Below, in pieces: positions 32,950 through 53,849 of a DNA stretch of 64,000 bases. The notes beneath the pieces were generated by a model. The model was not told where the DNA came from, ran no database searches, and was given only the letters and a program-made list of their open reading frames with translations. A program made the position numbers and the translations under genes. Origin of the DNA: Candidatus Heimdallarchaeum endolithica (GTDB lineage: Archaea > Asgardarchaeota > Heimdallarchaeia > Heimdallarchaeales > Heimdallarchaeaceae); NCBI GenBank assembly GCA_021513715.1, contig CP084167.1, positions 658,117 to 722,116 on the forward strand. Direction: 5' to 3'. Position 1 is the stretch's first letter. The number at the start of each line of letters is the position of its first letter.

Positions 32950-33235
32950 CATACAAAAAGAAAAAATTCATTTCATTTTTTTTAACTCTCTTCCAAATAA
33001 AAATACAGTTAAGATTGTAGCCCCCAAAGCAAGTAAAAACAAATAAATTAAAGTTATTTCGAATGGAGAATTATCCAGAAATTAGCCAAAAGACCAAGGA
33101 AAGACAGCTGCTAATGTGTTGGGTATTGCAAACAAGAAACCAAGTGCTGTTGACCTATTTCCTGATGCACTTCTTCTCTTACATATCTTGTACTTGCTAC
33201 ACTACTAAAGTGTAAAAAGGCTATGAAAGCAAAAT
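32950..33235 (-). pseudogene. C-terminal fragment of an MFS-transporter paralog
   Basis: Minus-strand RSTALGFLFAIPNTLAAVFPWSFG* matches the MFS protein at 35968-37221 (KSRSTALGFLFAIPNTLAAIFPWSFGY); in-frame TAA and an upstream frameshift. Confidence 0.5.
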
Positions 33236-33237
33236 AA

Positions 33238-33660
33238 AATATTATTATTCCACATGTTCGAGAAGGTAAAGGAAAAGGAAAAAGTACTCGTAAGTTTCGC
33301 AGGAAACTTCATCAGTGGAACTTTTCTCTTGTCCTTGCTCTTCTCCGTCGGACACTAATATTAAGAGGTTTTGACCCTCATCGAATATTAACAATAGAAG
33401 AAAGAGGGACATCTTCTCACTGTGCTCGTTACGGGAAGAAAGTTATCCGTCCAGTAAGAGGTTTAGTTCATTGTTCTTCTTGCAATTACACTTTCCACTC
33501 TGACCTCACAGGGGCAATAAATATCGCTCGTAAGTTCCTTGGGGCTCTTTTCCGTCCTCGAGGAACAACTATCACTGATTACCTCACTGGTCAAAGGTTC
33601 AGTTCTACCCATTTCACTGTTTGCCGAGGGCTCAGCCATTGGTTGCAGTCCCAGTAGATG
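33238..33660 (+). pseudogene. 5'-truncated TnpB-like nuclease gene (zinc finger plus RuvC-III)
   Basis: No start codon; translation ...IRPVRGLVHCSSCNYTFHSDLTGAINIARKFLGALFRPRGTTITDYLTGQRF... aligns with the C-terminal ~120 aa of the intact gene at 51095-52609. Confidence 0.65.
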
Positions 33661-33720
33661 AAAAAGGACTTAACTAATTCTATCCTCTTATATTTGAGGT
33701 TTAGTTCTTTCTTTTTTGTC

Positions 33721-33800
33721 TCTCGTGGAGTGAAGAAAGATAGAAAGAAAAACTTTCTTTTCTTCTTTATGATTCCCACGATTCGTGTATGATGTCTGTC
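33721..33800 (+). ncRNA. Degenerate copy of the TnpB-associated structured 3' element
   Basis: CTCGTGGAGTGAAGA...hairpin...CTTTATGATTCCCACGATTC matches 52649-52710; the inner stem differs in sequence but stays complementary. Confidence 0.35.
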
Positions 33801-34017
33801 TCAACTCTTCATAGCATTGTATGACTTGGTTGAGTTCAAGAGATTAAACTTTTACTTGTTTTTTCTCTTGCAAGACAGAGTGCGAAAAACTTTACGTAAA
33901 AAAGTAAATCATGACAAAATACTGCATCTTCTGGTGTTTTTGATCCACATTTTGTACAATATTTCATAAACATTCACCCATATTACTACCATAGTAGTAA
34001 TACTATCTTATATAAAT

Positions 34018-37355: not shown

Positions 37356-40300
37356 CTATAATTTTCCTTCATTTGAGCGCTCAAAAGATGAGAATTCATT
37401 AAGAAGGCGGTCAATAGCTTCTGTGATTTCTTCTTTACTACCTGATGCAAAAGTGAAAATAACCATTTCTCCATCTATCACAAGGAGATCTTCAGGAAGG
37501 GTAACTAACCATCTATACAATGCCCCACGATTAGTGAATTCTAATGCATCCACTAAATCTTGAATAGACACTTTTTTAGCTCTTTTTGCTAGTCCTCCTA
37601 AAGTATTTCTTCTTTTAATAGACATTTGCCATTCAGCAAAAGAATCAAATCCTTCATTTAACGCTTGTTGATATGTAGGATAATCTGGAAAACCATTTTT
37701 ACTTGCTTTGCTTGCAGAAGTAAAATCAGGAGCTTTCATTTTCTTAACAAAAATTAACCCATTTTTATTTTCAGCGCCTAGTTTTTGAGCTTCTTCATAT
37801 TCTTCATAATTAGAAAAACCACCATCTTTTATCTTTTTAGCAATATCATAACTAGGAGCCCCTAACTTCTTCGTTAGTTCAAATCTTTCTTTATTTTCAG
37901 CGCCTAGTTTTTGAGCTTCTTCATATTCTTCATAATTAGAAAAACCACCATCTTTTATCTTTTTAGCAATATCATAACTAGGAGCATTAGTTTGTAAAAT
38001 TTCTAAATTCATTTTTCTTTTATTTAAACGGTAGCGAATGAAAAATACCAAGCCAACTATAAATAATAAAAATAATGATCCGATAGGAATAATGTAAAAT
38101 TTTAAAGGGTTAGAACTTGATTTTAAGGGATTTGTATTAAATATTAACTCTATTTTATCGGAAAATCCATCGTTGTCTGTGTCTGTGTCTGTAGGGTCAG
38201 TATAATAAGTATTTACTTCTTCTTCATCAGTTAACCCATCGTTGTCTGTGTCTGTGTCTGTAGGGTCAGTATAATAAGTATATTCTTCTATGTTAGTTAG
38301 CCCATCATTATCATCATCTTCGTTTGCGTTACTTGTTAATGGGTCTAAATTGTAAAGTACTTCCCACCCATCTGGCATTCCATCATTGTCTGTGTCTGTG
38401 TCTGTAGGGTCAGTATAATAAGTATATTCTTCTATGTTAGTTAGCCCATCATTATCATCATCTTCGTTTGCGTTACTTGTTAATGGGTCTAAATTATAAA
38501 GTACTTCCCATCCATCTGGCATTCCATCATTGTCTGTGTCTGTGTCTGTAGGGTCAGTATAATAAGTATATTCTTCTATGTTAGTTAGCCCATCATTATC
38601 ATCATCTTCGTTTGCGTTACTTGTTAATGGGTCTAAATTATAAAGTACTTCCCATCCATCTGGCATTCCATCATTGTCTGTGTCTGTGTCTGTAGGGTCA
38701 GTATAATAAGTATATTCTTCTATGTTAGTTAGCCCATCATTATCATCATCTTCGTTTGCGTTACTTGTTAATGGGTCTAAATTGTAAAGTACTTCCCATC
38801 CATCTGGCATTCCATCATTGTCTGTGTCTGTGTCTGTAGGGTCAGTATAATAAGTATATTCTTCTATGTTAGTTAGCCCATCATTATCATCATCTTCGTT
38901 TGCGTTACTTGTTAATGGGTCTAAATTGTAAAGTACTTCCCATCCATCTGACATTCCATCTTCATCAGTATCAGCTTTTTTGGGATTTGTACCTAAGTAA
39001 TCTTCCAAAAAGGAGGATAAACTATCATTGTCAGGGTCTACATCTGCTAAATTATTTGTTCTGGAAAAGTTTCCTGTTCCACTTAAACCCTGCCAAAAAA
39101 CATTAATACCTGAAGGTTCAAATTCTAAAGCATAAATACTATAGTCAAAACTGCCTATTAATAAATCTAGTTTTCCATCCCCATTTATATCTGCGATAGC
39201 AGGAGAAGAGTCGATATCTCCACCTGTTGTGTATGACCATATTACTGTCCCATTTTGCCCATTAAGAACATAAATCCTGTCATCTTTACTTCCTATTATT
39301 ACATCTAGTTTTCTATCCCCATTTATATCTGCGATAGCAGGAGAAGAGTCGATATCTCCACCTGTTGTGTATGACCATATTACTGTCCCATTTTGCCCAT
39401 TAAGAACATAAATCCTGTCATCTCTACTTCCTATTATTACATCTAGTTTTCTATCTCCATTTATATCTGCGATAGCAGGTGAAGAGTAAATAACTCCACC
39501 TGTTGTGTATGACCATATTACTGTCCCATTTTCCCCATTAAGAGCATAGACTAAGCTATCATAACTTCCTATTATTACATCTAGTTTTCCATCCCCATTT
39601 ATATCTGCGATAGCAGGAGAAGCGCAGATATCATATCCTGTTATATATGACCATATTACTGTCCCATTTTCCCCATTAAGAACATAAATCCTGTCATCTC
39701 TACTTCCTATTATTACATCTAGTTTTCCATCCCCATTTATATCTGCGATAGCAGGAGAAGAGTCGATATCTCCACCTGTTGTGTATGACCATATTACTGT
39801 CCCATTTTGCCCATTAAGAACATAAATCCTGTCATCTTTACTTCCTATTATTACATCTAGTTTTCCATCCCCATTTATATCTGCGATAGCAGGAGAAGAG
39901 TCGATATCATATCCTGTTGTGTATGACCATATTACTGTCCCATTTTCCCCATTAAGAACATAAATCCTGTCATCTCTACTTCCTATTATTACATCTAGTT
40001 TTCCATCCCCATTTATATCTGCGATAGCAGGAGAAGAGTGAATAGCAGCACCTGTTGTGTATGACCATTCTAATAAACCAAATTTTCCTATAACATATAT
40101 TGTATTATCAACGCTACCTACAATTACTTCTGTAACTCCATCATTGTCTATATCCGCTGCAGAACATGAAGAAACAATATAATTGTTAGTTTTGTAGTAC
40201 CAAAGTCGATTAGAAGTCAATGAATTTACCGAACTAGAGAGAGATATCTGCTGTTCTGATAATGGTAAGGAATAACTAAAACTTGGTAAATAAAATGAAT

Positions 40301-40481
40301 CTGTGGACTGTTTAACTGAGGTCAAATTATCTTGTGAATTTGTTGTTGTAATATCTTGATAATTTGATAACACTAATAATACAATAAGCGTTGTAGATAA
40401 AATTATTCTCTTTTTTATAATAAAATTGAATAGCTCATCAAAAATATGACGCCATATTTCATTTTTTTTTGAATTAATCAT
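37356..40481 (-). CDS. Large surface-anchored repeat protein: beta-propeller (FG-GAP/PQQ-like) blades plus thrombospondin-type-3-like calcium-binding repeats
   Basis: N-terminal signal/anchor; 8 copies of YTTGGDIDSSPAIADINGDGKLDVIIGS..DDRIYVLNGENGTVIWS; 5 copies of DTDTDNDGMPDGWEVLYNLDPLTSNANEDDDNDGLTNIEEYTYYTDPT; TM helix; cytoplasmic tail with a duplicated 32-aa unit. Confidence 0.75.
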   Translation of the reverse strand: MINSKKNEIWRHIFDELFNFIIKKRIILSTTLIVLLVLSNYQDITTTNSQDNLTSVKQSTDSFYLPSFSYSLPLSEQQISLSSSVNSLTSNRLWYYKTNNYIVSSCSAADIDNDGVTEVIVGSVDNTIYVIGKFGLLEWSYTTGAAIHSSPAIADINGDGKLDVIIGSRDDRIYVLNGENGTVIWSYTTGYDIDSSPAIADINGDGKLDVIIGSKDDRIYVLNGQNGTVIWSYTTGGDIDSSPAIADINGDGKLDVIIGSRDDRIYVLNGENGTVIWSYITGYDICASPAIADINGDGKLDVIIGSYDSLVYALNGENGTVIWSYTTGGVIYSSPAIADINGDRKLDVIIGSRDDRIYVLNGQNGTVIWSYTTGGDIDSSPAIADINGDRKLDVIIGSKDDRIYVLNGQNGTVIWSYTTGGDIDSSPAIADINGDGKLDLLIGSFDYSIYALEFEPSGINVFWQGLSGTGNFSRTNNLADVDPDNDSLSSFLEDYLGTNPKKADTDEDGMSDGWEVLYNLDPLTSNANEDDDNDGLTNIEEYTYYTDPTDTDTDNDGMPDGWEVLYNLDPLTSNANEDDDNDGLTNIEEYTYYTDPTDTDTDNDGMPDGWEVLYNLDPLTSNANEDDDNDGLTNIEEYTYYTDPTDTDTDNDGMPDGWEVLYNLDPLTSNANEDDDNDGLTNIEEYTYYTDPTDTDTDNDGMPDGWEVLYNLDPLTSNANEDDDNDGLTNIEEYTYYTDPTDTDTDNDGLTDEEEVNTYYTDPTDTDTDNDGFSDKIELIFNTNPLKSSSNPLKFYIIPIGSLFLLFIVGLVFFIRYRLNKRKMNLEILQTNAPSYDIAKKIKDGGFSNYEEYEEAQKLGAENKERFELTKKLGAPSYDIAKKIKDGGFSNYEEYEEAQKLGAENKNGLIFVKKMKAPDFTSASKASKNGFPDYPTYQQALNEGFDSFAEWQMSIKRRNTLGGLAKRAKKVSIQDLVDALEFTNRGALYRWLVTLPEDLLVIDGEMVIFTFASGSKEEITEAIDRLLNEFSSFERSNEGKL
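38150..38960 (-). repeat. Intragenic tandem repeat, 144-bp unit, about 5.5 near-identical copies
   Basis: Unit recurs at 38371, 38515, 38659, 38803, 38947 (period exactly 144 bp); encodes the 48-aa Asp-rich repeat. Confidence 0.85.
39100..40080 (-). repeat. Intragenic tandem repeat, 138-bp unit, 7-8 near-identical copies
   Basis: ATCTGCGATAGCAGG recurs at 39189, 39327, 39465, 39603, 39741, 39879, 40017 (period exactly 138 bp); encodes the 46-aa propeller blade. Confidence 0.85.
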
Positions 40482-40596
40482 ATTTATAACCTTTACATTT
40501 ATATATTACAGATTCTCTGTTAAGAACTGCTTATTTATAAGTTGTAAATAATAAAGTGAAAACAAATATAAATAATTTACTTAATTTTTTCTCGGT

Positions 40597-40700
40597 TCTT
40601 TGTTCACTCAATAGACTTGGATTACACTTTTGGGCACTAGAGAAACATAGGGGTGATTCATAAATTTTTCTCCAGGAGTAAGGAGGTTAAGAGACTAATG
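40597..40700 (-). pseudogene. 3'-terminal fragment of an IS481-like transposase gene
   Basis: Reverse complement of 40621-40700 is near-identical to 44540-44627 (…TPGERFMNHPYVSLVPKSVTQVY*). Confidence 0.6.
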
Positions 40701-40729
40701 AGGTCAACTAAAATTGTAGTAAAAAAGTA

Positions 40730-41270
40730 AATCATGTCTAAAAAGTCTATTTCTTGACTTACACTGCCTGAAGGAGCAAAAGGTAATTGTAGCAGATTAG
40801 AGGACTGTAGAAAGTATTAAGGACACAAGAAGGTAAACGATCAAGGATAGGGGAAGAGAGATTTTGAGGAAACCGAAAACATGTTCAACACTACTACGAT
40901 ATTCAGGGTGATGATTATAGTTATTGAGACCAGAATAAAGACGATGAGCATGGTCTTATCCCTATTATTTATCCTAAAACTAACGCTCGTTATTCTGGTT
41001 ATCCACCATTTGTATCTATAGTCCATGAGTTGAAATTTTACGTAATTTCTTCAGGACTCTCCCCAACCAATCAACAAACTTAGCGAAAGTTGTGAAGACT
41101 GGCTTAAGAGAACATGAAAGACACAGTCTTAATTAAGTTCTCTAAGGGGTTCATCTCCTTATCCCGGGCACTCATAACTCCCAAAGGGAAGACCGGGTGT
41201 CGTAGGAGTGAAACCTACGTCTTTAAGCATATAGCTCAAGACACTAGATAAATTAGAATTAAATATATAA
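40730..41270 (-). pseudogene. 5'-truncated, indel-bearing copy of the IS4/IS5-like DDE transposase gene
   Basis: Minus-strand AHRLYSGLNNYNHHPEYRSSVEHVFGFLKISLP... aligns with the C-terminal half of the transposase at 48491-49435; degenerate right inverted repeat at about 40729-40747. Confidence 0.6.
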
Positions 41271-41286
41271 AGATAGCTGAAAAGTT

Positions 41287-41892
41287 GTGACACTCCCTAA
41301 TATCGTGTATGTATTCTTTATTTTTGCAAATGTGTTTCAGGTTGTTATTGGTCTGATAACTCCACAAACTAAAAATTTAGTTTATTACGTAAAAAAGTAT
41401 CTCATGGACATAGTAGGTCCTACAGCTGAAATTAATGAATTAAGTGTTATTACAAAAACAGGTGATATTAGTGTTAATTCACACACTACTGAAAATGTTA
41501 CAATTAACAACATTATGCTTATTTCAACTACAGGTATTATTCATTTTAGTTTAAGTGATGAAGGAATAAATTATATAAGCAATGCTCTTTCAACCACTAC
41601 TACAGGAAAGATAGAGTTCGATTTTGGAAATAATTGCACTTACAACGGAACAGAAATTAACCTTTCAACAACAACAGGAAAAATAGTTGTTTATTGTACA
41701 AATATGAATTACTTAGTCAATGTATCGTGGTTAATTTCTACAACTACTGGTTCTGTTTATGCAAATATTACTCAAGATTTTATTATTGAAAATCAATTAC
41801 AAGTTTCGTTTTTCATTACAGTAAATACTGGTTCAATAGAAGTATTAACTACTTTTCATGAAGAGCTTTTTTGTACATTTTTGTCAAATTAA
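41287..41892 (+). CDS. Hypothetical protein with STTTGKI repeats (DUF4097/adhesin-like)
   Basis: Three to four repeats of STTTG(K/S)I in a beta-rich sequence; GTG start, so the true start is uncertain. Confidence 0.35.
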   Translation: MTLPNIVYVFFIFANVFQVVIGLITPQTKNLVYYVKKYLMDIVGPTAEINELSVITKTGDISVNSHTTENVTINNIMLISTTGIIHFSLSDEGINYISNALSTTTTGKIEFDFGNNCTYNGTEINLSTTTGKIVVYCTNMNYLVNVSWLISTTTGSVYANITQDFIIENQLQVSFFITVNTGSIEVLTTFHEELFCTFLSN

Positions 41893-42430
41893 AAAATTGG
41901 TGTTTAAATAGTGAAAAGACATTATTAATGTAGAGAGTGAAAAAAAAAGATAGATGTTAAGAAAAATACTTACTCTCTAAGCTGGCACGGCGTGTCAGGA
42001 TAAAAAAAACATGCGCATAAAGAAAGAAATCAAAGAAAATTTGAATACGACTTAACTTTCCCGTGTGAGAGGATTTATTCATCCAGTTTCCACGGTGGAG
42101 GAGTGCTCAACCTTCTCCTCTGGCTCAATGAGTGTTTAGATCTCCCTCCTAGACAGATCTTTCCGAGAGCAAGATTGGCGTACAAAAATATTGTACAAAA
42201 ATTAAGTTGATGAAGATATAGGCTACCTTTTTGAAGCAAATACAGCTACAGGTACAATAAGCATTCCTAGTCAATCAACAAACTATGATACAGCTCTTAA
42301 CAAATACTATTTCTCTCTGCACACCAGTACTGGAGACATAAAAGCAGAGGTATAATCTACTACTTCTTTTTTTTGTTTTTTCTTTTCTAACTTACAATAA
42401 ATTAAAAAATGAACAAATAATTTTTTTTCT

Positions 42431-43576
42431 ATGAACGAAAAATACATCGATCAAATCAGAGCAAATTCTCCGACTTTAAATCAAGTAACTTTTTTAAATC
42501 ATGCAAGTACAGCACCCTTACACGGTAGAACACAGCAAGCGTTTCATGATTATTTGAATCAGTGGTCTAAGTATGATTTTGCTGAATCCAAAGAAAAGAG
42601 TCAACTAGCTCGTGAGGAATTTGCTAAACTAATTGGTGCTTCAAAGGAAGAAATACTTTTTACTTCTGATGTTACTCAAGGTACCAATCTTGCCGTTCAT
42701 ATGTTAGATTATGATGAAAAAAGTAACATTGTATGTTATTGGAATGATTATGCAGGACAAGTACATAGTGCTCTTTTCTTAAATAAAAAGAAAAAAATAG
42801 AATATCGTCCAGTCCCAGATCGTGAAGGTTACATTTATCCTGATGACTTTGCTGAAAAAATAGATAAGAATACTAAAATTGTTCTTTTGTCTCATGTTCA
42901 ATGGATTACTGGGTTTAAATCTGATATCAAAGAAATAACTAAAATTGCTCATGAAAATGGTGCCATGATTCTTGTAGATGTTATTCAGAGTTCAGGTGTG
43001 CTCGAGATTGATGTTAAAGACTGGGATGTTGATTTTCTTACTTCAGGAGTAGCTAAATGGCTTTTAGGACCAAATCAAGCAGGTTTCTTTTACATGAAAA
43101 AAAAGTTAATTGATGAATACGATCCACCTTTACCTGGTTACCAAGGAGCTGATTACGGCTCGATTGACTCACCTTATTGGAATGTTAAACAGATAGAATA
43201 TAGAGAAGGTATTGACAAGTTTCAAATTGCAAATATTGGACCAATGATGTATCAGATTGCATATGAAGGTATGAAAATAATCACTGAATATGGAATAAAA
43301 AAGGTGGAAAAAAGAGTTTTAGATTTAACTTCTTACCTTATCGAGAGAATTCAAGAACTTGGCAATTATGAGTTTTTAAGTCCTATTGAAGATAAATACA
43401 GAGCTGGAATTGTTAATTTCAAAGTTGAAAACAACATTGAGATAGCTAAAAAACTTTCTGAAGAAAAAGTAGTTGTTTCTTCAAGATATGGAGGAATCAG
43501 GATTAGTCCTCATTTTTATAATACCAAAGAAGACTTAGACAAATTTATAGAATTATTTAAGGCAATCAAAAAATAG
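42431..43576 (+). CDS. PLP-dependent class V aminotransferase / cysteine-desulfurase-fold enzyme
   Basis: SHVQWITGF ... ILVDVIQSSG ... SGVAKWLLGP with candidate PLP-binding Lys. Confidence 0.65.
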   Translation: MNEKYIDQIRANSPTLNQVTFLNHASTAPLHGRTQQAFHDYLNQWSKYDFAESKEKSQLAREEFAKLIGASKEEILFTSDVTQGTNLAVHMLDYDEKSNIVCYWNDYAGQVHSALFLNKKKKIEYRPVPDREGYIYPDDFAEKIDKNTKIVLLSHVQWITGFKSDIKEITKIAHENGAMILVDVIQSSGVLEIDVKDWDVDFLTSGVAKWLLGPNQAGFFYMKKKLIDEYDPPLPGYQGADYGSIDSPYWNVKQIEYREGIDKFQIANIGPMMYQIAYEGMKIITEYGIKKVEKRVLDLTSYLIERIQELGNYEFLSPIEDKYRAGIVNFKVENNIEIAKKLSEEKVVVSSRYGGIRISPHFYNTKEDLDKFIELFKAIKK

Positions 43577-43688
43577 ACTTAAATTCGCTCTATCTTACTT
43601 TTTTTGAACTCACTTATTTCTCTGTGTATACTCCACTCACATTGGTAACAAATAAATAGAAGTGGGTTACGTGGGTAAGTGATTAAAT

Positions 43689-44627
43689 ATGAATAAGACC
43701 GAACGTAACCTGGAGAAACTAAGAAAAATTGTAGTTAAAAAAGCTTTGGAAGGAGAGAAGATAAAAGAGATAGCTCACAAGTATATGGTGAGTAGGAAGT
43801 TTGTGTATAAGTGGTTGAAGAGGTTCAGAGAGAACCCTGAAGGAGAATGGTGGAAAGATAGATCCTCCAGACCAAAAACTATACACAGGAAAGTGGATGA
43901 GGAGTTAAAAGAGAGGATAAGGGAGTTAAGAATAAAACAAGGAATGAATGTGGAGAAGATAGCTTATTTGTTGAAGAGAGAAGGAAAAGCACTCTCTCAG
44001 ACGACAGTGACGAAAGTAATAAAAGAGTTAGGTCTTCCTTTATGGGTCAATAGAAAAAAGAGGAAGAGACCTCGATACAAGAGTTTTGAACGTCAAAAAC
44101 CTAACGAACTCTGGCAAATAGATGTGAAAGGACCATTCTGGGTAGAAGAACAGGGACAACATCTCCATCTCATAACCTTGATAGACGACCACTCACGATT
44201 CTGTCTGGGAGCTAAATTCCACCCTTTTGCACCAAAAAAAGAGCAGATAATAAATCTACTAGAGGAAGCAATAAAAGAGTACGGTTACCCCGAGTCTATC
44301 CTCACGGACAATGGAGCACTCTTCTCTTCCGTTAGAGGAGGAACAAGTACCTTCTCCCGTTGGTGTCAAACAGAAGGAATAAAACACATCAGAGCTAGAG
44401 TTTTTCACCCCGAAACATGTGGAAAAGTAGAAAGACTACATGGGACAATCATCCGTGAGATGGAAAGATTAGGTCTAAAATACTGCAACCCCGACCTCTC
44501 CTACTACCGCTCTTACTACAATTTTAGTCGTCCTCACCAATCTCTTAACTTCCTCACCCCAGGAGAAAGATTTATGAATCACCCCTATGTTTCTCTAGTA
44601 CCCAAAAGTGTAACCCAAGTCTATTGA
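43689..44627 (+). CDS. IS481-family-like transposase (HTH plus rve integrase core, DDE)
   Basis: N-terminal HTH; WQIDVKGPF...LIDDHSR...LTDNGALF...HPETCGKVER; GC content higher than flanking DNA. Confidence 0.75.
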   Translation: MNKTERNLEKLRKIVVKKALEGEKIKEIAHKYMVSRKFVYKWLKRFRENPEGEWWKDRSSRPKTIHRKVDEELKERIRELRIKQGMNVEKIAYLLKREGKALSQTTVTKVIKELGLPLWVNRKKRKRPRYKSFERQKPNELWQIDVKGPFWVEEQGQHLHLITLIDDHSRFCLGAKFHPFAPKKEQIINLLEEAIKEYGYPESILTDNGALFSSVRGGTSTFSRWCQTEGIKHIRARVFHPETCGKVERLHGTIIREMERLGLKYCNPDLSYYRSYYNFSRPHQSLNFLTPGERFMNHPYVSLVPKSVTQVY

Positions 44628-44722
44628 GTAAACACTCACTTATTTCTCTGCCTAAATTTTATATAGTAGTACCTTTTTATCCTCTTAATACAAATACATA
44701 TGACCAATACGGGTGATTTAAA

Positions 44723-47593: not shown

Positions 47594-47711
47594 TTTTTTT
47601 TTCATTTTATTTTGTTATTTTTCTATTAATAAATGGTTTAATGCTATTCAATAATGTAAAAAAGAAAGACTTAGTTGATTAAACTTTGTCTCACTATTAA
47701 TCCCATTTATC

Positions 47712-48296: not shown

Positions 48297-48460
48297 TGTA
48301 ATTATTGAACTAGAATCATTCCTTTTTTTCTTTTATATATTTTGCCTAAATAAATTTAAGAAGTAGCATTATAGTAAGATTTTTTTTTAAAATATTACCT
48401 TTTTTTTTAATGAACAATACATTTACAATAACAATTAAATATCAAATGTAATTCTAGTAT

Positions 48461-49464
48461 AAGCATGTCCAAAAATTAATTTTTATTAATGTGGGGGTTT
48501 ATGTCGGAAGTATGAATTTCTTTCAGATCATAGACCCCCACAAAGCAAGAGAATTCATAATCATTAATGAACCTTTCCTTAAGAAACTGGTGAAAGAGGA
48601 ACCGAGAGAAAGCAAGAGAGGGAGAAAGAGAATAGCAGAAAGATGGGTGATACTGGCTTTAGCAATCATTGCTAGAATAGAAGGGATAGCTTGGAGGAAG
48701 TTAGAGGAAAAGTTGTCTTTATGCGATTTTTTGATAGAAGAGGGGTGGATGAAGAAGATTCCTTCTAAATCTACTTTTCATGCAGTGTGGAGAGCGACAG
48801 AAAGTAAAATCTTAGAGCAGTGGATAATAGATTTAGGTAGGGAAATAGTGAGGAAAAAAGGCTTGAAAGCTATGGCAGTGGATAGTTCAGGGTTTAAAAT
48901 CCGTCAAGCTTCTGTTTGGCGTTTTCTCAAATGGTCAAGAGGGACACTAAAGAAAACCTCTAAACTTTTCTGGAAGATACACCTTATAGTTGGTTTACCC
49001 TCTCGAGCTATAGTCTCTCTCGCTCATTCTGCTAGTAACACTCACGATAGTAAAGTCTTCGGTTTACTCTGGCAGAAACTTCCTTCTGCACTCTTGAGAC
49101 CTTTCTTGCGATTTTATGGAGACTGTGCCTACTGGACAGAAAATATCGTTGGACTTCTTAGCCAACATTCCTTTTTCCCTGTTATTCCCCCAAAAAGTAA
49201 TGCTCGTTATCCCTCTCCTCCTCCCCTCGGACCAATAGTTCAAGCTCATCGTCTCTACCCTGGTCTGTATCGTCGTAATCATCATCCCGAGTATCGTAGT
49301 AGTATTGAACACGTCTTTGGTCTCCTTAAACTCTCTCTTCCCCCAATCCTTGATCGTTTACCCTCCACCATCCTCTCTACCTTGTACAGTTCTCTTCTCT
49401 GTTACAACTACCTTTTACTCCTTCGGACCGTTTAGTTGGTGAAAAAGAATTTTTGGACATGCTT
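48461..49464 (+). mobile_element. IS4/IS5-family-like insertion sequence (1004 bp) with perfect 17-bp terminal inverted repeats
   Basis: Left IR AAGCATGTCCAAAAATT at 48461-48477; right IR is its exact reverse complement at 49448-49464; flanked by direct repeat TAGTAT at 48455-48460 and 49465-49470. Confidence 0.8.
48491..49435 (+). CDS. DDE transposase (IS4/IS5-like)
   Basis: AVDSSGF, YGDCAY and IEHVFG...K motifs; the ATG at 48512 may be the true start. Confidence 0.75.
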   Translation: MGVYVGSMNFFQIIDPHKAREFIIINEPFLKKLVKEEPRESKRGRKRIAERWVILALAIIARIEGIAWRKLEEKLSLCDFLIEEGWMKKIPSKSTFHAVWRATESKILEQWIIDLGREIVRKKGLKAMAVDSSGFKIRQASVWRFLKWSRGTLKKTSKLFWKIHLIVGLPSRAIVSLAHSASNTHDSKVFGLLWQKLPSALLRPFLRFYGDCAYWTENIVGLLSQHSFFPVIPPKSNARYPSPPPLGPIVQAHRLYPGLYRRNHHPEYRSSIEHVFGLLKLSLPPILDRLPSTILSTLYSSLLCYNYLLLLRTV

Positions 49465-49491
49465 TAGTATATTTGGGAAAAAGAGGTAAAA

Positions 49492-50838: not shown

Positions 50839-51094
50839 ATTGAAGAACTTGAAAAGAAAGTAGAAATACCAAGAGAGTGGGTTATAAAAACAGCTTATAA
50901 AATAGAAACTCTGGAAGGAGGTTATTATCTATGGAAAGAGTTTCTAGGAGCATTAAACAAGGATTCTCTACTGATGATAGAAAACGACAGTTTACCCCAT
51001 GAAAAAATTTTTTGTATAAATTCTTTAGGTTTTTAAATAAATTGCTTAATTAATAAATAGAGAAAAGAAAGTGAAGAAGAAAAAGGATTAGAAA

Positions 51095-52609
51095 ATGGAG
51101 AAAATAGTGAGAACATTAAGAGTAAGAGTAAAAACAGAAAAATTAACGAAGTTCAAAAAAGATAGAATGAGAAAGATAACAGGAAGAGATACTAGAATAA
51201 TAGAAGAATATGTAAAAATAATAAGAAAAGAAGAAGAAAAAGTAATAAGAAAAATAAGCAAACAAGGAGAGATAAGACTAAAAGTGCATAAAGGCAAGTT
51301 AGATGAACTAACACTAACAACAACAAAGAAAACAAATAAGAAAAAAAGGACAGTTGTACCCTATGATCTCAAAAAAAAGTTTCCTAATTGTTCTCACGAT
51401 GAATTTCAAGAGTGTAGAGATGTAGCAGTACAACTTTATGAACAAGGATATAACAAAAAAAAGAACAAAAAAAGAAAAAAAGGATATATTTTACCACCAG
51501 TAAAACGAGCAAGAAAACAACTAATCAATAAAAATAGATTTATCATAAAACATTTGCCTAAAGGGAAAAACACTCTTTCTCGTTGGTGGGTAGGGATAAG
51601 AGACTCATTAGACACACAAAAAAGAAAAAAACGAACACATCGAAGACTATGGATACCACTAGAAATGAGTGAATATCACCAAAAAGAAATAAGAAAAGGA
51701 CAAGTAAAAAGTCTAGAATTAAAATATAACTCACAAAAAAACAGTTGGTGGGTAAATTTTCAGATAACAATTATTCCTCAAGCAGATCTCTACAAGAAAA
51801 AAAAAGTTGACTCTTCTCTTCTTCCTCCAGCTGTGCTGGGAATAGATCTGGGAGAAAAAATACCTGGAGCAGGAGTGTTATTAACATCAACAGGTAAAAT
51901 ATCTCCCAATCATATTTTCTTCTGGAAAATGAAAGAATGGAAAAAAAGGAAGTATATCTATCAACAGAAAATAAGAAGATTGCAACGAAAACTTGCAAAA
52001 AAGAAGAATACATGTAAAGACAAAAGAAGCAATAAAGGATATCAAACATTAAAAAAATTAAGAAAAAGATATCAGACGCTCTCTCATGCTTATTTATATG
52101 CTTTTATCAATGAGTTGTGGAAAGATATTGTTGAACTTACACAGGATTATAATTTAGTCGTTGTTGTTGGTTACCCCAAGGGAGTACACTCGAAATTAAG
52201 AAAAAAAGTAATGAATCAAGACTACAGACCACAGAACTCTTCTACTCGTTTTACTCGTAAAAAGGTTCACCCGTGGAATTACTACCAAATAGTTACTCTT
52301 CTTCGACGAATGTGTCTTCTAAATGGGTTAGAACCCGAACGTATCCTCACCTTACAGGAATATCTTACCTCTTCTCTTTGCTCAAAATGTGGACGAAAGA
52401 CTATTCGACCTGTTAGAGGTCTTGTTTATTGTTCTCATTGTCATTATACTCTTCACTCTGACCTTACCGGTGCAATCAACATCGGGAAATTGTTTCTTCG
52501 TTTTCTTTTTCGCCCCCGAGCATCTACACTAGTTGATTATCTTACTGGACAACACTTTAGTCTCACCTTTTATACTTCCTTCAGGGGTCTCAACCAGTGG
52601 TTGAAATAG
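51095..52609 (+). CDS. tnpB: TnpB-like RuvC nuclease (IS200/IS605 OrfB, Cas12/Fanzor-related)
   Basis: RuvC-I LGIDLG, RuvC-II region around FINELW, zinc finger CSKCG...CSHCH, RuvC-III HSDLTGAINIG; lysine/arginine-rich N-terminal half. Confidence 0.8.
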   Translation: MEKIVRTLRVRVKTEKLTKFKKDRMRKITGRDTRIIEEYVKIIRKEEEKVIRKISKQGEIRLKVHKGKLDELTLTTTKKTNKKKRTVVPYDLKKKFPNCSHDEFQECRDVAVQLYEQGYNKKKNKKRKKGYILPPVKRARKQLINKNRFIIKHLPKGKNTLSRWWVGIRDSLDTQKRKKRTHRRLWIPLEMSEYHQKEIRKGQVKSLELKYNSQKNSWWVNFQITIIPQADLYKKKKVDSSLLPPAVLGIDLGEKIPGAGVLLTSTGKISPNHIFFWKMKEWKKRKYIYQQKIRRLQRKLAKKKNTCKDKRSNKGYQTLKKLRKRYQTLSHAYLYAFINELWKDIVELTQDYNLVVVVGYPKGVHSKLRKKVMNQDYRPQNSSTRFTRKKVHPWNYYQIVTLLRRMCLLNGLEPERILTLQEYLTSSLCSKCGRKTIRPVRGLVYCSHCHYTLHSDLTGAINIGKLFLRFLFRPRASTLVDYLTGQHFSLTFYTSFRGLNQWLK

Positions 52610-52775
52610 ACCTATGTACTATTATACCATAATGGTAGAATACTTAGTACTCGTGGAGTGAAGAGTTCTACTCTTCTTTATGCGTCCCACGATTCCTAGA
52701 TGATGTCAGTATGCTCAAACATCTGTTTCAGCGTTTGTATTCTTCCACTGACGTAGTAGGAGAAAATTGTACAAA
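52610..52775 (+). ncRNA. Candidate TnpB-associated guide-RNA scaffold (omega-RNA/reRNA-like) and element right end
   Basis: Immediately after the tnpB stop: near-palindrome TACCATAATGGTA (52625-52638), nested stems CGTGG...GAAGAG-loop-CTCTTC...CCACG (52649-52700), ending near palindromic TTGTACAA (52767-52774); core conserved with compensatory changes at 33721-33800. Confidence 0.4.
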
Positions 52776-53849
52776 AAATTAACTCATGAAGAAGAATACT
52801 TGATAAACGCTATAGGATTAGGAGGAGAAATAATACCTGACATCAAGAGCAATTTCAAAAAACTAATTGAAATATTCGCAGAAGCTCCTGACGATCTTGT
52901 AAAAATAGGAGATACAGCCTTTTTCATGGGTTATATGGATAATATTTATTCTAGCCAGTTTTGGACAATAAAAAACTTCGTTAAAGGAAACAAAAAAAAT
53001 TGGAAAAAAGATTTTATAAAAATAGCAATAAAAGCATATTCAAAAGCTCTAGATAATATTATTCCATCAGTTAACCCAGTAAAGTACGGTTTGCTAATAA
53101 ACGATTTAGGAGTATTTTACTTATTTCTGTCAGAATTAGAGCAAACTAAAAAACACACTATAGAAGCAATCAAAAATTTACTTGATGCAAAAAAAGCATT
53201 ACCTTTAGAGTTCTTTAAAACAAAACATAGTGATATTTGTTATAATTTAGGACTGGCTCATTTATTTTTGTCTAAAATAGAAGAAAAAGAAGAAAATATT
53301 AAACAAGCTATTCTAAACTTTAACGTTGCTCTGCAAGGAAGAACGTTAAGAATGTATCCATTGAAACATGCTATAACACAAGTCAATCTAGGAATTGTCT
53401 ACCAAAAATTAGCTGAAATCGAAGAAACCTCTTTAAATTGTACATTAAGTATAGAATCTTATAACAATGCTTTGAGATCCAACACTCTAGACGTCATGCC
53501 AACAGAAGCAGCGATGATATATAACAACATAGGTCTATCTTATTGCACTTTATCTGATGTACAGGAAACAGAATACAATATTTCACAAGCTTTAATTGTT
53601 TTAAATGATGCTTTGACCATCAGAAATGAAGCACAGTTTCCTGTTGAATATGCAATTACAACAAGTATTTTAGGAAAAGCTTATACAATTCTAGCAACAG
53701 TAAAAGAAAAAAAAGAATATTATGAAAAGGCAATATCAGCATTTAATAAAACAATTAAGATATTCATCAAGAAATATGAAGACTTCTACCAAGCAATAAT
53801 ACAAGAAAAAGAAAAAGTAGAAGAGAAACTAAAAGAAATAGCGCAATAA
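52767..53849 (+). CDS. TPR-like helical repeat protein
   Basis: Recurrent (N/Y)N(L/I)G..Y..L...E pattern every ~40 aa; start ambiguous (TTG at 52767, TTG at 52800 or a downstream ATG). Confidence 0.5.
   Translation: MYKKLTHEEEYLINAIGLGGEIIPDIKSNFKKLIEIFAEAPDDLVKIGDTAFFMGYMDNIYSSQFWTIKNFVKGNKKNWKKDFIKIAIKAYSKALDNIIPSVNPVKYGLLINDLGVFYLFLSELEQTKKHTIEAIKNLLDAKKALPLEFFKTKHSDICYNLGLAHLFLSKIEEKEENIKQAILNFNVALQGRTLRMYPLKHAITQVNLGIVYQKLAEIEETSLNCTLSIESYNNALRSNTLDVMPTEAAMIYNNIGLSYCTLSDVQETEYNISQALIVLNDALTIRNEAQFPVEYAITTSILGKAYTILATVKEKKEYYEKAISAFNKTIKIFIKKYEDFYQAIIQEKEKVEEKLKEIAQ

Follow-up and report, generated by a model that had tools for sequence, protein, structure and literature searches.

The GC-rich non-coding island upstream of an aminotransferase gene in a 64,000-nucleotide stretch of the Candidatus Heimdallarchaeum endolithica genome (the window) is a discrete 352-nt insertion (41862-42213) within a zinc-ribbon/beta-helix gene, as defined by the empty site of a relative. 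Both of its ends are shared with a tnpB-only element at 51003-52789, and CATG(A) or its one-base variant GATGA lies at its junctions. We conclude that the island is very probably a non-autonomous element of the MITE/PATE type at a CATGA site, with ends of the same family as those of the TnpB element.

Results

The island interrupts a gene that is intact in a close relative

Empty sites were obtained from a close relative (a Heimdallarchaeaceae genome, contigs L003-L006), with L003 as the reference contig, which is collinear with the window apart from discrete differences. The relative has an uninterrupted 411-aa zinc-ribbon/beta-helix gene directly upstream of its aminotransferase gene, the ortholog (89% identical) of the window gene at 42431-43576, whose product is 100% identical to a Ca. 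H. endolithica protein. In the window, the zinc-ribbon gene is found in three fragments:

33911..33967, − strand: 5′ fragment, amino acids 1-19 (MKYCTKCGSKTPEDAVFCH); tblastn 89% identity
about 41398-41868 (41408..41861), + strand: middle fragment, amino acids about 211-367; tblastn 70% identity, E=1e-67
42214..42355, + strand: 3′ fragment, amino acids 367-411 and the stop codon; tblastn 77% identity, E=6e-17 (amino acids 365-411 at 42212-42352)

By blastn, L003 3884-4303 corresponds to window 41422-41841 and L003 4322-5729 to window 42212-43624, so that the island was inserted between 41841 and 42212; the 3′ fragment (∼140 nt) separates it from the aminotransferase gene. At the left junction (marked here and below by a slash), the relative reads ..TTCCACGATGATATTGG.. 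and the window ..TTTTCATGAAGAG/CTTTTTT.., and the CATGA at this junction is host gene sequence (codons ..CAT GAA..). The right junction has GATGA instead of CATGA and a spacer one base longer, and the direct repeat that flanks the island is ATGAAGA. The original prediction had described the island as GC-rich and non-coding, with no TnpB gene nearby, and each of these points held: the core (42050-42180) has 48% GC compared with 30.5% for the window, which places it in the top 0.3% of 130-nt windows, all of its ORFs are short (≤54 aa), and no tnpB lies within 8 kb. The features of the island and its junctions are as follows:

41857..41861, + strand: CATGA of the left junction, target or transposon-adjacent motif
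41857-41885: CATGA/AGAGCTTTTTTGTACATTTTTGTC, family-type left end of the island
41862..41890, + strand: left terminal repeat AGAGCTTTTTTGTACATTTTTGTCAAATT, which aligns with the left end of the TnpB element and fits the architecture pattern described below
41903..41910, + strand (rightward): TTTAAATA, archaeal-type TATA-box-like sequence inside the island
41971..42180, + strand: GC-rich interior, 44% GC overall and 48% in the core
42180..42208, + strand: right terminal repeat GTACAAAAATATTGTACAAAAATTAAGTTG, which matches the right end of the TnpB element; the relative resumes at 42212
42190-42208: first 19 nt of the 27-nt motif discussed below, the portion within the right end
42209..42213, + strand: GATGA of the right junction, a degenerate version of the CATGA with which most of the examined family members close
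Empty site in the relative: ..GAATTCCACGATGATATTGG..
Left junction in the window: ..ACTTTTCATGAAGAG/CTTTTTTGTACATTTTTGTC..
Right junction in the window: ..GTACAAAAATATTGTACAAAAATTAAGTTG/ATGAAGATATAGG..

The left and right arms are 71% complementary across 28 nt. The right end can form a 6-bp hairpin (GTACAA-AAATA-TTGTAC, 42180-42196); apart from this hairpin there are only end palindromes of 8-10 nt, with a stability no better than that of shuffled sequences. The box TTTAAATA is the one found 5′ of window genes, where boxes of this type lie ∼30 nt 5′ of start codons in an archaeal promoter pattern, and the TnpB element carries this box too, as GGTTTTTAAATAAAT in its left end; the copy at 41903-41910 may act as a promoter.

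The insertion also accounts for the listed 201-aa ORF at 41287-41892, which is a chimera of the end of a second miniature element (see below), the middle gene fragment and eight island codons. A decayed gene unrelated to TnpB elements had been named as an outcome that would speak against a link to these elements. Around the island there is indeed a decayed gene, into which the island itself was inserted. The island is present in a single copy in the window, whereas several copies would be the hallmark of a mobile family, and it is absent from 300 kb of the relatives' loci. A Logan contig identical to the window covers 42187-43653, its right end reaching 29 nt into an IS481-like element; given a k=31 assembly, its start at 42187 places a repeat or polymorphism boundary at ∼42216. 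This break hints at a repeated island, and low coverage or a local variant explains it equally well.

Island and TnpB element share their ends

The 27-mer ATTGTACAAAAATTAAGTTGATGAAGA (42190-42216) was originally noted for its close match to a counterpart, ATTGTACAAAAAATTAACTCATGAAGA, which was taken to mark the 3′ boundary of a TnpB-associated element. The empty site of the relative places that boundary at 52784/52789 and confirms this assignment. The TnpB element has the following parts:

51003..52789, + strand: tnpB-only element, inserted in a TPR gene; empty site in the relative
50998-51002: target CATGA
51003-51030: left end
51095-52609: tnpB gene (504-aa product), Pfam Cas12f1-like_TNB
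52638-52758: ωRNA core
52766-52792: counterpart ATTGTACAAAAAATTAACTCATGAAGA, which straddles the 3′ boundary
52785-52789: CATGA that closes the right end ..GAAAATTGTACAAAAAATTAACTC
Empty site in the relative: CCCCACGAAGAAGAATAC; longer stretch ..TTACCCCACGAAGAAGAATAC..
Left junction: CCCCATGAA/AAAATTTTTTGTAT..; longer stretch ..TTACCCCATGAA/AAAATTTTTTGTATAAATTC..
Right junction: ..TTAACTC/ATGAAGAAGAATAC; longer stretch ..GAAAATTGTACAAAAAATTAACTC/ATGAAGAAGAATAC..

In the comparison with L003, the insertion that holds tnpB lies between 51032 and 52779, and a metagenomic contig with 98.7% identity to the TnpB element stops at 52781, which is practically the boundary. The two flanks of the element share the bases CATGAA. 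Both empty sites have a single CA(C/T)GA, whereas both filled sites have one at each insertion end. The tnpB gene and ωRNA are present in 51003-52789; the island has neither and is linked to the TnpB element through its ends only.

The two copies of the motif agree at 24 positions when two 1-nt indels are allowed, with two substitutions. Blastn of 40400-42430 against the window recovered this match, but at E=0.15 and as one of many equal-scoring AT-rich hits, and TTGTACAA, which the motif contains, occurs six times in the window compared with ∼2 expected. The likeness of the motif copies without further evidence is therefore not above chance, and its meaning needed independent evidence. When the ends were compared directly, the right ends of the island and the TnpB element were alike at z=6.2 (0 of 500 shuffles reached the score) and the left ends (50998-51070 of the TnpB element) at z=3.0 (4 of 500 shuffles). 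The predicted match is thus present, and it exceeds chance only in this end-to-end comparison. The motif itself consists of ∼20 nt of element right end, the junction (C/G)ATGA and AGA; the closing AGA is host coding sequence at both loci, and its agreement between them is a coincidence. A third, weaker copy proposed at 33952 did not survive: TTGTACAA at this position represents the codons TAT TGT ACA AAA (Y-C-T-K) of the CxxC motif that the 5′ zinc-ribbon gene fragment encodes on the minus strand, and is therefore unrelated to the 27-nt motif.

A common end architecture across Heimdallarchaeaceae TnpB elements

The left ends of the island and the TnpB element consist of CATGA, 5-6 nt, a T-run and GTA(C/T)A, and the right ends of TTGTACA, an A-run, TTAA(G/C)T.. 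and (C/G)ATGA. The same architecture was found at the TnpB elements of ∼15 metagenomic Heimdallarchaeaceae loci (TnpB homolog loci L009-L040), where left ends have CATG(A), 5-6 variable bases, a T-run and a short palindrome (ACGTA, GCGTA or GTACA), and right ends have the palindrome, an A-run, (G/T)TAA(A/C)T and CATG(A). CATG(A) or GATGA lies directly 5′ of the left end in all 15 members examined. TCATGA closes the right ends of winA, winB, L010, L017 and L019; the corresponding sequences are TCATGC in L012 and TCATTA in L014. From CATG onward, the left end can be aligned for ∼25 nt with the reverse-complemented right end, for example GATGACTTATTTTTTTACGTAAGTTT and CATGATTTACTTTTTTACGTAAGTTT in L010, and the ends are therefore true terminal inverted repeats.

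The identical bases that flank an element are ATGA in L010 and CATG in both L012 and the second miniature element. Such identity is consistent with two situations: a target motif that recurs as the right-boundary motif, or a short duplication centred on CATG. Because its length ranges from 4 to 7 nt and it always falls on CATG, CATG may be a specific target or core and not part of a fixed-length duplication.

A pattern built on this architecture, devised after the sequences had been seen, matches the window six times compared with 0.11 times in shuffles. Each match falls on an element end: the left one of the island, the two of the TnpB element, the right one of the truncated second TnpB element described below (33893-33913) and the two of the element at 41024-41407. 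With position-weight matrices of the left and right ends built from external loci alone, the island ends are not among the top ten matches in the window; the loci in these matrices mostly have ACGTA-type palindromes, whereas the island and the TnpB element have GTACA.

Alternative origins of the shared ends

One alternative is an unrelated origin of the island, as some other insertion or indel, in which case the likeness of its ends is an AT-rich coincidence. The window-wide E-value of the motif match, the ranking by the external-loci matrices and an interior unrelated to any TnpB element would all agree with such an origin. We nonetheless consider it improbable, since both island ends match TnpB element ends at boundaries set independently by the empty sites, both insertions occurred at CATGA, and the left ends share a TATA-like box at a similar offset.

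The original prediction offered a solo right end as one possibility, that is, a relic of a TnpB element whose body had been deleted and which lacked a functional left end. The lack of a tnpB gene nearby and of homology between the interior and the body of the TnpB element are consistent with such a relic. However, a family-type left end lies exactly at the other insertion boundary, the insertion is discrete with collinear gene sequence on both sides, and the left 100 nt of the island are not host sequence in the relative, making a relic very improbable. The assignment of a right end to the family of the TnpB element therefore stands, but this end belongs to a complete element.

Least credible, and contradicted by the data, is a promoter or leader shared by the aminotransferase gene (42431) and the TPR gene (52767), despite the AT-rich composition of the motif, which resembles archaeal promoters, and the position of both copies upstream of + strand ORFs: the aminotransferase gene keeps its own short upstream region, a 70-nt spacer in the relative, which has no island there, conserved and collinear in the window at 42356-42430; the 52767 ORF is the 3′ part of the TPR gene cut by the TnpB element and thus not a gene start; the local TATA consensus TTTAAATA is absent from the motif; and the motif does not recur at other genes. 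This last point rests on searches of the window and of genome and metagenome contig collections (both without the H. endolithica genome), in which the degenerate motif had one chance match among genome contigs (a Bacteroidota genome) and the exact 26-mer had no match among metagenome contigs. Viral contigs gave no match to the island core and one chance match to the motif, in a viral promoter region. Two further identities for the motif were rejected by eye: an archaeal C/D-box RNA, as the second copy has no C box, and a BRE/TATA promoter, as the local TATA consensus differs.

A second miniature element and the GC-rich interior

Another element without tnpB lies 450 nt upstream of the island, adjoining the zinc-ribbon gene fragment:

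41024..41407, − strand: second miniature element (384 nt), of the same superfamily as the island, with a TATA-like box and an ωRNA core, without tnpB

It ends in a 26-nt inverted repeat (CATGAGTTGAAATTTTACGTAAT and ATTACGTAAAAAAGTATCTCATG), and its minus strand resembles the TnpB elements of L017/L019 in their ωRNA region (z=9.3, 0 of 200 shuffles). From the left end, an AT-rich part that contains a promoter-like box leads to a GC-rich RNA part and the right end. Because the ωRNA core is kept without tnpB, this looks like a stand-alone guide-RNA element, judged by its sequence.

We considered the possibility that the GC-rich interior of the island is likewise a stand-alone ωRNA-like guide-RNA gene that uses TnpB in trans, with a guide taken from the flank after 42213; such a guide would help the island to persist. 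The layout of the island is that of its neighbour (left end, TATA box, GC-rich part, right end), whose GC-rich part is an ωRNA core, and the island has the TATA-like box at 41903-41910 and a GC content like that of ωRNA regions. However, a covariance model of nine ωRNA cores, run with filters off, did not match the island, and local alignment to eight ωRNA regions revealed likeness (z=4.1) only at the right terminus that the island and the TnpB element have in common, and none in the interior. Folding of 41960-42230 gave ordinary energies on both strands compared with shuffles (z of −0.4 and −1.1). We therefore propose an ωRNA-like interior only tentatively, as possible but not the expected outcome.

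Other searches also gave no match for the interior. Rfam 15 had nothing at the gathering score in the whole window, and at E≤10 over 40400-42500 returned a lone spurious snoRNA match outside the island; no tRNA or tmRNA was found by scanning. There was no DNA relative of the island elsewhere in the window by blastn, no DNA homolog in 300 kb of related loci, no match of the region to the rest of the window by six-frame tblastn, and no real alignment in a three-way MAFFT comparison of the island with both TnpB 3′ regions. A TnpB profile HMM searched against six-frame pieces of the window found only the two known tnpB loci and no remnant in the island. Exact-protein look-ups with the island and flanking ORFs returned no record, and a protein search with the 54-aa island ORF gave no candidates. 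A bacterial promoter/terminator scan was uninformative because the organism is archaeal.

Other mobile elements and rearrangements in the region

A truncated second TnpB element (33238-33914) terminates in CATGA (33910-33914), which adjoins the 5′ fragment of the zinc-ribbon gene. This element retains only the last ∼135 aa of tnpB (33238-33654) and an ωRNA core (33710-33844), and its right end closes in that CATGA; it was inserted at a CATG at about codon 20 and is oriented opposite to the zinc-ribbon gene. Next to the element, part of the 3′ end of the MFS gene is present as a duplicate (32990-33257). Compared with L003 5-3287, the segment 33910-37195 is inverted; it carries the genes for the MFS transporter, YdjM and two small GTPases as well as the beginning of the zinc-ribbon gene. 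Both ends of the inversion lie at ends of TnpB-family elements, which suggests that it arose by recombination between element copies.

Two rve-type insertion sequences are absent from the relative. One is an IS481-like element with an rve integrase (43625-44634) and a 16-bp target duplication CTCACTTATTTCTCTG; the other, at about 48443-49457 by the L003 gap (48464-49461 from CATG to CATG), has inverted ends starting CATGTCCAAAAATT, so that CATG is found at its ends too. Upstream of the second miniature element, decayed IS fragments form a patchwork at 40590-41025. One of them, 40601-40722, shares 89% identity with the end of the intact IS481-like element (44513-44634) in inverted orientation, and another, 40721-40952, shares 76% identity with the end of the other rve-type IS (49241-49473); at 40721-40737, between the two, the family-B right end TAAAAAAGTAAATCATG is found as an exact 17-nt copy. 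A three-gene ABC-transporter block of the relative (L003 8705-11628) is missing at ∼47623-47644, where ∼20 nt are left. The gene at 37356-40481 (minus strand), absent from the syntenic region of the relative, encodes a 1041-aa protein and contains two long in-frame tandem arrays with units of 138 nt and 144 nt (83-96% identical) that encode FG-GAP/PQQ-like and thrombospondin-type-3-like repeats. In a metagenomic relative (L018 ∼2720-2760), a TnpB element has its ωRNA core interrupted by an IS481-like element, which was inserted immediately 3′ of CTCGTGGAGTG. In this lineage, mobile elements insert into each other.

Discussion

MITE/PATE-like derivatives of tnpB elements are a known kind of element, and the end architecture in Heimdallarchaeaceae is the only mildly unusual aspect of the island. 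PATEs, described in Haloquadratum (PMC3119063), derive from IS200/IS605-type (IS1341-type, tnpB-only) elements and encode no protein, and PATE-like elements of Geobacillus share ends with TnpB elements (PMC10055086). Like PATEs, the island is small and non-coding, shares its ends with tnpB-carrying elements of the same genome, has short palindromes near both termini, is inserted beside a short specific motif and has a similar motif at its right boundary, as with the TAM and TEM of IS200/IS605. Motifs in these two positions are found across the island family (CATG(A)/GATGA on the left, mostly TCATGA on the right). In contrast to IS605-type elements and PATEs, which are defined as lacking terminal inverted repeats, the family has ∼25-nt true inverted repeats that start at CATG, and not the asymmetric ends with subterminal hairpins and no inverted repeats of IS200/IS605. 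It also differs from PATEs in that the left-flank and right-boundary motifs are identical (CATGA) and that no Y1 TnpA was found in the data at hand.

The island resembles a MITE in its size (352 nt), the lack of any ORF longer than 54 aa, its location in a gene, its flanking direct repeat and its imperfect terminal inverted repeats, which are related to those of the larger TnpB element. Unlike the situation for MITEs, the larger relative has tnpB only, with no recognized transposase, and the flanking repeat of the family is built on CATG with an identity that varies from 4 to 7 nt. TnpBs have also been linked to DDE transposases in an IS630-type branch with symmetric ends, and Asgard Cas1-linked TnpBs are reported to be flanked by repeats (PMC10691335). 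The elements described here are similar in having tnpB ≤250 bp from the element end, inverted-repeat ends and an Asgard host, but differ in that no DDE transposase or Cas1 gene was seen in or next to the Heimdallarchaeaceae elements; moreover, IS630-type elements duplicate TA, whereas the island family has CATG.

In the mechanism that we propose for the island as a miniature element, the 352-nt sequence was inserted at CATGA inside the zinc-ribbon/beta-helix gene of Ca. Heimdallarchaeum endolithica. Since it has neither transposase nor tnpB, it must be mobilised in trans, presumably by an enzyme that recognizes the family ends; solo TnpBs are known to be mobilised in trans (PMC10691335). The TTTAAATA box would drive a transcript through the GC-rich interior toward the right end, and by analogy with the neighbouring miniature element, the interior may be an ωRNA-like scaffold from an unsampled TnpB lineage.

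Two routes of mobilisation fit the data. An IS200/IS605-type route with a Y1 TnpA is consistent with the constant CATG(A) at the left flank followed by variable bases. Against it are the inverted-repeat ends with weak hairpins and the identity of the left and right motifs, owing to which TnpB could cut its own right junction; in addition, the available data contain no Y1 TnpA, and tblastn with an approximate IS608 TnpA query had no match in the window or in 300 kb of related loci. Alternatively, a transposase or recombinase could act on symmetric ends, with CATG as a specific target or crossover core. The symmetry of the element ends agrees with this route, although no such gene was seen inside or next to the elements. 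An extension of the latter idea, to which we give a low probability, is that the tnpB-only elements of Heimdallarchaeaceae and their miniatures constitute a distinct group of CATG-specific inverted-repeat transposons moved by a non-Y1 transposase. The mover may then be a DDE enzyme, an Asgard Cas1 or a site-specific recombinase, the last of which may act on the palindromic joined ends ..AAAAAAGTAAAT-CATG-ATTTACTTTTTT... If such a group exists, its miniature members would act as guide-RNA satellites and use TnpB supplied in trans, and the group could bear on how TnpB came to inverted-repeat transposons, as with Fanzor in eukaryotes.

For the annotation of this genome, the insertion explains the GC-rich non-coding island and the chimeric 201-aa ORF, and three element insertions together with a rearrangement explain why the zinc-ribbon gene is in three pieces. 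For transposon biology, the empty sites verify exactly where TnpB elements begin and end in a complete Asgard genome. Symmetric ends with an identical CATGA on each side depart from the textbook picture of IS200/IS605, raising the question of which enzyme moves these elements and how TnpB avoids cutting its own right junction. Finally, the TnpB elements of Heimdallarchaeum have protein-less derivatives, one of which has only a promoter-like box and an ωRNA core.
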